Shown here: positions 51,757 to 52,270 of the stretch, one piece after another
Layout of the letters: each line of letters opens with the position of its first letter
How positions within the stretch are numbered: the stretch's first letter is position 1
DNA from: a virus
Length of the DNA: 64,000 bases
Strand: one strand, 5' to 3'
UHGV virus genome: UHGV-0026213
Notes under the pieces: generated by a model
Seen by the model: the letters and a program-made list of their open reading frames with translations, nothing else
Told to the model about the DNA's origin: nothing
The model's database searches: none
Position numbers and translations under genes: made by a program

Positions 51757-51792
51757 CCCTACTCCTTATCGGGAGTAGGGTAGTTTTTTATT
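51757..51792. terminator. terminator between convergent genes
   Basis: CCCTACTCC-TTATC-GGGAGTAGGG hairpin followed by TAGTTTTTTATT; sits at the 3' ends of the plus gene (51671) and the minus gene (51788). Confidence 0.75.
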
Positions 51793-52270
51793 GTTCCGCA
51801 GGATGGAGCATTGTTCCGGTGTCAGGGGCTACACCTTCTTTACAGTGGAAGAAAGTAATGCCTTTACCATCACCCGTTTTATATTCTAAAGTAGAATACG
51901 CAAATGTTGGCGTTTTTGAAAGTAACCCATTTACACGATAGTAACGTTGTCCAGTGATAGGATCGATATTTCCATTAACTTTACCTAATAGATCTTTATA
52001 AAGTTGTGGCGACTCAATCTTACCATTTGGCCAAGTGGCTACCCAGTTAGCACCAGTATCGATTATAGTTACTGAGCCTAACATTAGGTTAGTCGAACTG
52101 ACGACAGGTTTGTAATTTACAAAATCTTGCTCTACACCCATACAGGTGTAAATAACCATGTCGTGTGGTTCCACCGGCACAGTCGAGAATTGACCGTTAG
52201 CGGTGGGTTGTAAAGCACATCCTGCTAATGAAAAAACACCAACCATAGCGATAAGAAAACGTTTTAGCAT
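51788..52270 (-). CDS. lipoprotein (candidate superinfection-exclusion/receptor-masking protein)
   Basis: MLKRFLIAMVGVFSLAGC has a lipobox (LAGC) with Ala at +2; ATG at 52270 lies 6 nt after AAGGTGA; minus-strand gene in a plus-strand region. Confidence 0.6.
   Translation of the reverse strand: MLKRFLIAMVGVFSLAGCALQPTANGQFSTVPVEPHDMVIYTCMGVEQDFVNYKPVVSSTNLMLGSVTIIDTGANWVATWPNGKIESPQLYKDLLGKVNGNIDPITGQRYYRVNGLLSKTPTFAYSTLEYKTGDGKGITFFHCKEGVAPDTGTMLHPAEQ

Follow-up and report, generated by a model that had tools for sequence, protein, structure and literature searches.

Why does a jumbo phage carry a lipoprotein gene that is read against all of its neighbors? The question is raised by a 64,000-nucleotide stretch of the UHGV virus genome UHGV-0026213 (the window), where a 160-codon open reading frame (ORF) at 51788-52270 on the minus strand encodes a protein that begins MLKRFLIAMVGVFSLAGCALQ. 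The original prediction saw a lone minus-strand gene in a plus-strand block and took its product for a lipoprotein that might exclude superinfecting phages or mask their receptor. The lone position holds over a long interval: the gene is the sole minus-strand gene between 8643 and 53550, and a minus-strand block starts two genes beyond it, at 53615. We infer that the product is a periplasmic binding protein that is tethered to the outer membrane, produced late, and left out of the virion. We also propose, tentatively and well short of conviction, that this binder protects the envelope of the infected cell against further phage attack.

The window comes from a jumbo phage akin to Salmonella phage SPN3US (Seoulvirus, Chimalliviridae) and to the Erwinia jumbo phages, and its nucleotide-level matches in GenBank phages are limited to stretches about 76% identical. 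As delimited mechanically, the ORF would begin at an ATG at 52330, which lies just 5 nt away from the start of transcription inferred below. The start conserved among homologues is the ATG at 52270 (MLKR...), and this one has the Shine-Dalgarno sequence of its own that had been predicted. The ORF is a genuine coding gene, because the ratio of nonsynonymous to synonymous substitution rates (dN/dS) is 0.10-0.11 against two close relatives, a sign of purifying selection, and because full-length homologues occur in 55 phage records (tblastn, 45-58% identity over 91-98% of the query). Positive selection was not seen at this dN/dS of ~0.1. All of these records belong to the SPN3US-like and Erwinia jumbo phage clade, and copies 93-95% identical to the window protein are found on uncultured contigs of 220-226 kb.

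The protein matches phrog_9559, a family of unknown function, over residues 2-150 (E=1.3e-65); the named homologues, SPN3US_0159 (gp159) and Asesino gp174, are annotated as hypothetical. A profile search of 1.84 billion representative proteins returned only 13 related cluster representatives, and those with an intact N-terminus retain the lipobox-type cysteine and two further cysteines. Two proteins from the search (P0015 and P0020) were disregarded as block-scrambled copies of the protein: each shows the SPN3US-type lipoprotein in seven separate matched stretches, probably through assembly or translation artefacts in the source data. The gp159 family is narrow and restricted to SPN3US-like and Erwinia jumbo phages. 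SPN3US gp159, Asesino gp174, and PHROG 9559 are true homologues of the window protein, with the same lipobox, the same two cysteines, the motifs SPQLY, RYYR, and GxGxG, the same neighborhood, and the same upstream TATGAC; the window protein is a diverged member with no substantive difference. Beyond this family, Pfam (17 members, E<=10) and the PDB sequence set gave signal-peptide matches or noise, and PADLOC gave nothing. NCBIfam matched the lipoprotein at the level of the signal peptide, a PDB sequence search with the family profile found a lipoprotein-signal match to TrwH, and an Rfam scan of the locus found nothing meaningful.

Relative to a second set of close relatives (L007-L009), the lipoprotein is 72% identical in amino acid sequence, versus 92-96% for the flanking genes, with saturated synonymous divergence (dS). 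Because the lipoprotein departs so far from its flanks at saturated dS, the comparison indicates that alleles were exchanged within a mosaic region; it does not point to fast adaptive evolution or an arms race. Strong local mosaicism against L005-L009, relatives that are nearly identical elsewhere, is also seen in the first gp160-like gene (52409-52954), in the DUF4376 and phrog_7988 genes (within the 53615-54834 region), and at 57048-57947. These genes toggle between about 100% and 58-77% identity, independently of one another and of the lipoprotein, with dS from 0.04 to saturation. Two adjacent minus-strand radical-SAM genes at 54797-57026 (a 440-aa SPASM-like protein and one of 307 aa) are kept beside the DUF4376 and phrog_7988 genes throughout the clade.

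The lipoprotein assignment itself is borne out. The N-terminus reads MLKRFLIAMVGVFSLAG followed by C, with the lipobox L-A-G-C18 and, at position +2, Ala19, an outer-membrane-type sorting residue. A positively charged n-region (K3, R4) and a hydrophobic core precede the lipobox, which fits the pattern [LVI][ASTVI][GAS]C with no Asp at +2. The lipobox cysteine is invariant in 17/17 family members, and Asp occupies position +2 in none. When the 64-kb window was scanned for lipoboxes in six frames and from all alternative starts, this ORF was the sole match. Lipidation and Lol sorting of the protein to the outer membrane should therefore be expected on these signals, and we treat them as predictions.

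To picture the mature protein, we built an AlphaFold2 model from the 17-sequence alignment. The model is confident (pLDDT 83.9, pTM 0.71) and consists of a signal helix, a tether, and an all-beta domain. The mature protein is accordingly modeled as a tether of ~20 residues that leads into a compact 8-stranded beta-barrel of about 110 residues; it has 142 aa in total, with a folded domain of 15.5 kDa and 7% proline. Cys43 lies on the first and Cys143 on the last long strand of the modeled barrel. A Cys43-Cys143 disulfide is plausible in the model because the first and last strands are neighbors in a closed barrel. The columns that are invariant in the alignment are C18, C43, G73, R109, Y111, S126, G133, G135, and C143.

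When would the gene be expressed? The divergent promoter region that had been predicted is present: the 138-bp divergent intergenic region carries a promoter-like TATGAC element, and no sigma-70-like site was found on its minus strand. TATGAC stands 35-71 nt upstream of the lipoprotein ATG in 18/18 related loci, in spacers that are otherwise poorly conserved, and (A/T)TATGA(C/A) also precedes the tail sheath, baseplate, and head genes of SPN3US. In phage phiKZ, the non-virion RNA polymerase recognizes late promoters whose defining element is TATG and initiates at the G of this element (PMC4666361). Because TATGAC matches the phiKZ late promoter and precedes SPN3US structural genes, the lipoprotein gene is probably a middle or late gene transcribed from 52335 by the phage RNA polymerase, a timing read from motifs alone. 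Because TATGAC recurs in all 18 loci and a terminator hairpin follows the stop codon, the gene also appears to form its own transcription unit.

The message would begin with a stem-loop. All 15 distinct relatives (L002-L018 positions) have a predicted hairpin that spans +1 to about +25, with stems whose sequences differ from one relative to another in a compensatory way. This stem-loop could stabilize the mRNA or act as a downstream promoter element. A distinct motif, AGATAT(AT)TTAC, marks other genes in both SPN3US and the window phage. In the window, AGATATAT(A/T)TTAC lies upstream of three plus-strand genes (20849-20861, 40789-40801, and 45002-45014; 3 matches versus 0.17 expected), and in SPN3US no intergenic word is more strongly enriched than the related motif GATAGATATTAT/C. 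We take this motif to resemble the early (virion RNA polymerase) promoters of phiKZ.

The distribution of the gene is uneven. In the Erwinia phage Phobos (Derbicusvirus), the same neighborhood has the M15 gene followed directly by the gp160-like genes, with no lipoprotein gene. Because Phobos lacks it at the equivalent site, the lipoprotein gene is an accessory cassette, missing from some sister genera. Such an accessory, cassette-like distribution fits an exclusion-type 'moron' and leans toward an exclusion factor.

The lineage that carries the gene is also met in bacterial isolates. Genome assemblies of E. coli, Shigella sonnei, and many serovars of Salmonella include contigs of 220-227 kb that encode the identical lipoprotein or members of its 90%-identity clusters (119 and 308 members). 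Among the related genomes, some are on record as circular 'plasmids' with a length of about 222 kb (E. coli NZ_CP173450.1 and Enterobacter ludwigii NZ_CP134650.1), and one related locus (L034) is on the E. coli 98232 plasmid p98232-contig_4. It seems that isolates retain this jumbo-phage lineage over time, in a carrier state or by pseudolysogeny. In a carrier lifestyle of this kind, exclusion would pay.

We then asked what surrounds the gene. The original prediction had placed it beside lysis and receptor-binding genes. The first half of that description is right, since a GH108 endolysin gene and an M15 peptidase gene are close by (Table 1); the second half is not, since the adjacent plus-strand genes are homologues of SPN3US gp160 and the fiber and Gp38 genes are about 14 kb away. 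On the upstream side, the plus-strand genes are two DUF7941 genes, the GH108 endolysin, a DUF1353 gene, and the M15 peptidase. The endolysin has homologues in TtsA of Salmonella (6V40, E=7e-44) and in SagA of Brucella (7DNP, E=7e-13). The first gp160-like gene, which is divergent from the lipoprotein gene, encodes a protein 48% identical to SPN3US gp160.

Several of these neighbors have been placed in the SPN3US virion. With >300 copies, SPN3US gp160 ranks among the head proteins of highest abundance; it also occurs in tailless particles and belongs to a head paralog family of 20 members; gp157 (DUF1353) is a head protein, and gp158 (M15) is a trace virion protein that is absent from tailless particles (PMC5694885, PMC5105663). 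While gp155, gp157, gp158, and gp160 are listed in the SPN3US virion mass spectrometry tables examined, gp159 is not. Because gp159 is absent from these tables, we infer that the lipoprotein is not a virion protein.

Table 1. Features of the lipoprotein gene, its flanking signals, and the adjacent genes (window coordinates; the evidence or a remark is given last).
Feature	Position	Strand	Evidence or remark
CDS (coding sequence), 160-aa prolipoprotein (SPN3US gp159 family, PHROG 9559)	51788..52270	-	ORF, phrog_9559 match, homologue alignment, dN/dS ~0.1
Signal peptide and lipobox L15-A16-G17-C18; Cys18 codon 52217-52219; Ala19 at +2	52217..52270	-	sequence, lipobox scan, family alignment
Flexible tether, residues 19-37, between lipid anchor and barrel	52160..52216	-	pLDDT about 60-70, below barrel
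Predicted beta-barrel, residues ~38-146	51833..52159	-	Cys43, Cys143; D71-x-G73, S87-P-Q-L-Y91, R109-x-Y111-R112, G133-x-G135-x-G137
Shine-Dalgarno sequence AAGGTG	52276..52281	-	5-nt spacer to ATG 52270
Predicted 5'-terminal stem-loop of the inferred transcript	52310..52334	-	-11.6 kcal/mol in the window
TATGAC promoter-like motif (chimallivirus late/non-virion RNA polymerase type)	52333..52338	-	inferred start at G 52335; 65-nt 5' untranslated region
Bidirectional intrinsic-terminator hairpin, common to the lipoprotein gene and the convergent M15 gene	51755..51782	both	12-bp stem and T-run, beginning 5 nt beyond the stop codon
TATG motif of the divergent gp160-like head gene, which starts 33 nt further on	52373..52376	+	outside the lipoprotein unit
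GH108 and PG_binding_3 endolysin (TtsA/SagA family)	49806..50396	+	domain matches
M15-type peptidoglycan peptidase, convergent with the lipoprotein gene	51156..51671	+	phrog_894; SPN3US gp158 homologue, 78% identity
Two gp160-like head-protein genes (DUF7941, paralog family B), 52409-52954 and 53020-53550	52409..53550	+	similarity, PMC5694885

A search for homologues beside receptor-binding genes in related phages had been suggested. One distant relative (L021) has this arrangement, with the lipoprotein gene directly after genes for a 1024-aa tail fiber and a DUF4376 fiber-associated protein. Distant metagenomic relatives again have it among DUF7941 genes, and in one of them (L025) it adjoins the M15 and DUF1353 genes.

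The receptor-binding equipment of the window phage consists of a 1533-aa fiber at 31774-36375 (T4 gp34, fiber-repeat, and S74 domains) and a Gp38 adhesin at 36375-37157. The plus-strand region 31774-37157 thus holds a T-even-type long-fiber gene (Gp34_trimer, Phage_fiber_2, S74 chaperone) with the Gp38 adhesin gene directly after it. The adhesin is 57-68% identical to gp38 of the Tequatrovirus/Mosigvirus type and 81% identical to that of 'Escherichia phage CMS-2020a'. A fiber/Gp38 mosaic is unusual in a chimallivirus-like phage and suggests, from these similarities, an outer-membrane-protein receptor and an Escherichia, Shigella, or Salmonella host. Just upstream of the fiber region, two adjacent plus-strand ORFs at 30127-30548 (75 and 65 aa) each encode one strongly hydrophobic segment and may specify holin-type or other membrane proteins. 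Downstream, a plus-strand gene at 38745-40736 encodes a protein of 663 aa in which DUF6645 is combined with a carbohydrate esterase domain of the SASA type, possibly a tail protein that deacetylates surface polysaccharide.

How could the lipoprotein act? In the mechanism that we propose, the message would be transcribed by the phage's own RNA polymerase from the TATG-type middle/late promoter. The protein would be exported by Sec, lipidated by Lgt, LspA, and Lnt, and delivered by the Lol system into the outer membrane on its inner leaflet, so that the barrel would be located in the periplasm just beneath this membrane. There the barrel would act as a binding module, not as an enzyme, and would neutralize a conserved component at the interface between outer membrane and peptidoglycan, either by masking an outer-membrane component or by neutralizing an incoming lysin. 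The infected or carrier-state cell, and its debris, would then no longer support productive attack by further virions. In function the lipoprotein would parallel T5 Llp, Cor, and TraT, which mask receptors, or T4 Spackle, which neutralizes a lysin, without being homologous to any of them. We favor envelope protection, with the reserve expressed above, because of the accessory, cassette-like nature of the gene, the precedents, and the lead given by the fold, which in the model leans toward a binder of peptidoglycan hydrolases.

The precedents are of two kinds. T5 llp is a small divergent lipoprotein gene 79 nt from oad (pb5), and together with the distant relative whose homologue follows fiber genes it provides a precedent for the gene layout. 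As in T5 Llp and Cor, the window gene encodes a phage outer-membrane lipoprotein, is accessory, and forms a small unit of its own opposite to its neighbors, and an action from the periplasmic side of the outer membrane is plausible. The comparison ends there. The genomic logic of T5 that had been invoked for the gene does not apply in the window, since its divergent neighbor is a gp160-type head gene, whereas llp is divergent from a receptor-binding gene and stands beside it. The mature protein has 142 aa versus about 60 aa for T5 Llp and Cor, the promoter is of late instead of early type, and the family spans phages with different receptors. Homology to T5 Llp was rejected: BLASTP gave E=1.2 over 8 residues, and hhalign aligned the signal peptide only, with a probability of 12%. 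Membership in the Cor family (T1, phi80, N15) was likewise rejected, as no PHROG other than 9559 matched at E<=0.01 and, noise aside, no Pfam family matched any of the 17 members at E<=10. The second precedent is T4 Spackle (Sp), the periplasmic inhibitor of the gp5 tail lysozyme. Like Spackle, the lipoprotein would be a phage-made periplasmic candidate for neutralizing the lysin of a superinfecting virion; Spackle, however, is soluble, helical, and encoded by an early gene, is not a lipoprotein, and has no structural or sequence relation to the window protein.

Several findings weigh against a protective role. The genes next to it encode lysins and head proteins instead of receptor-binding proteins. 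Classical superinfection exclusion is the work of genes that act early, so a promoter of late type would be atypical for it. The family is kept across phages that differ in their receptor-binding equipment (the Gp38 module in the window phage, flagella for SPN3US), and this conservation argues against a receptor-specific mask; SPN3US, which carries a homologue, uses flagella as its receptor (PMC11428620). Neither sequence nor profile comparison relates the lipoprotein to Llp, Cor, spanins, or MliC, and among the phages compared its presence is not coupled to that of GH108 or M15. Exclusion, including receptor masking, nevertheless stays a live idea in our analysis.

The alternative that survives best is an envelope role that has nothing to do with exclusion or lysins, which we consider possible and yet somewhat unlikely. 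The barrel could bind a small ligand or lipid in the manner of lipocalins or YceI, or it could modulate Tol-Pal, Lpp, BAM/Lpt, or the flagellar L and P rings and so aid phage yield or release. The motifs of the family show strong conservation although the phages that carry them infect Salmonella, Erwinia, or unknown hosts, which points to a conserved host target, and a late-type promoter is compatible with a role in release. However, we found no specific pointer to a ligand or a machine, and the accessory distribution within the clade argues against a core role in assembly or release.

Next comes the possibility that the lipoprotein is strictly an inhibitor of peptidoglycan hydrolases, a remote barrel of the MliC/PliC/PhiA type that is tethered to the outer membrane and binds GH108, M15, or a tail lysin. 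Its purpose would be to time lysis or to protect against leaked or incoming lysin, with or without phage exclusion. We regard this as unlikely, although several points speak for it. The cysteine pair on the terminal strands recalls PhiA (Cys76-Cys154, PMC8334348) and E. coli MliC. Among the listed matches, PhiA and PliC are the only ones that share both the predicted periplasmic or lipoprotein location and the putative terminal-strand disulfide, and they have the highest identities in the list. Residues 106-110 form an [ST]-G-x-R-[YFW] motif in a loop-to-strand position, which hhalign places on the SGARY of MliC. Among BFVD viral models, one of the informatively named matches beyond the family is to a protein of RB49 that carries an LprI-like lysozyme-inhibitor domain (E=7e-4). 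The M15 and GH108 genes lie within 0.1-1.4 kb of the lipoprotein gene, and the GH108 enzyme has a homologue in SagA of Brucella, with which PhiA is reported to be linked genetically (PMC8334348).

The sequence comparisons do not support the inhibitor reading. PF09864, the Pfam family of MliC, matched none of the 17 members at E<=10. When a shallow MliC alignment was compared by hhalign, the signal peptide alone was recovered, and once this was removed the probability was 0.4% (TGQRY on SGARY). A tblastn search with E. coli MliC against phage genomes gave noise only. The candidate SGxxY stretches are S87-P-Q-L-Y91 and T106-G-Q-R-Y110; neither is a clean match, and G107 is not kept in the most distant family members. 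PhiA also lacks the SGxxY motif and, though proposed on genetic grounds as an inhibitor, neither bound nor inhibited SagA in vitro (PMC8334348). Compared with MliC, PliC, and PhiA (PF09864), the window barrel is phage-encoded, about 30-40 residues larger, without a match at the level of hidden Markov models or profiles, and without a clear SGxxY. Nor do the genes travel together: GH108 and M15 turn up where the lipoprotein is missing (Goslar, CR3/CR9, Phobos), and Asesino and ChrisDB have the lipoprotein and no adjacent M15. The relationship to MliC, PliC, and PhiA is thus a lead from the modeled fold for which every sequence-level test came out negative. That the gp159 family is a new, phage-only family of outer-membrane-tethered MliC/PliC/PhiA-like barrels that neutralize virion-borne or endolysin-type hydrolases (M15 or GH108) in the periplasm of infected or carrier cells strikes us as distinctly doubtful.

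The weakest alternative, an o-spanin (the outer-membrane half of a two-component spanin, which fuses the membranes in the last step of lysis), would account for an outer-membrane lipoprotein with inferred late expression near an endolysin, as in the Rz1 type, and for the Pro/Ala/Thr-rich C-terminal tails of some homologues, but it is very improbable: no gene for an i-spanin-like type II membrane protein with a coiled coil adjoins, is embedded in, or overlaps the gene, which is monocistronic between convergent and divergent neighbors; no PHROG spanin matched; the mature protein is a confidently modeled barrel and not a short, Pro-rich, unstructured peptide; and SPN3US has a separate spanin-like pair that is more widely conserved than gp159. 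The missing i-spanin partner, the folded barrel, and the separate pair effectively exclude it.

The SPN3US pair is unannotated and lies at 180017-180976 of NC_027402.1 (35017-35976 of L029), as separated i-spanin- and o-spanin-like genes. The first (180017-180487) encodes an N-terminal transmembrane domain, a coiled coil, and a Pro-rich tail, and the second (180497-180976) has the lipobox LLTGC and a Pro-rich start. The lipoprotein of this pair has homologues in 73 jumbo-phage records, including CR5, Derbicusvirus, and genera without gp159. An SLT-like transglycosylase with a signal peptide is encoded 5 kb upstream of the pair, at 175058-175780.

PHROG 9559 is a family that has already been catalogued but is uncharacterized, and if the lipoprotein neither excludes phages nor inhibits lysins, it is one more uncharacterized accessory gene. 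If it has an exclusion or inhibitor function, it would be a phage envelope lipoprotein that is neither a spanin nor a homologue of Llp or Cor, with a different fold and late-type control. If it binds lysins, it would found a new inhibitor family relevant to endolysin-based antibacterials, and the MliC-like barrels would play the part of T4 Spackle with an unrelated structure; receptor masking would have a bearing on the design of phage cocktails against Salmonella, E. coli, and Erwinia. The candidate is cheap to test, and SPN3US has a working amber-mutant system. How chimallivirus-type jumbo phages handle the envelope after entry is little known, and the lipoprotein is a candidate for a part in it, in superinfection, lysis from without, or the loss of progeny on debris. 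If the inhibitor reading is true, it would be the first lysin inhibitor and the first envelope-level exclusion factor for the nucleus-forming-type jumbo phages of Enterobacterales.

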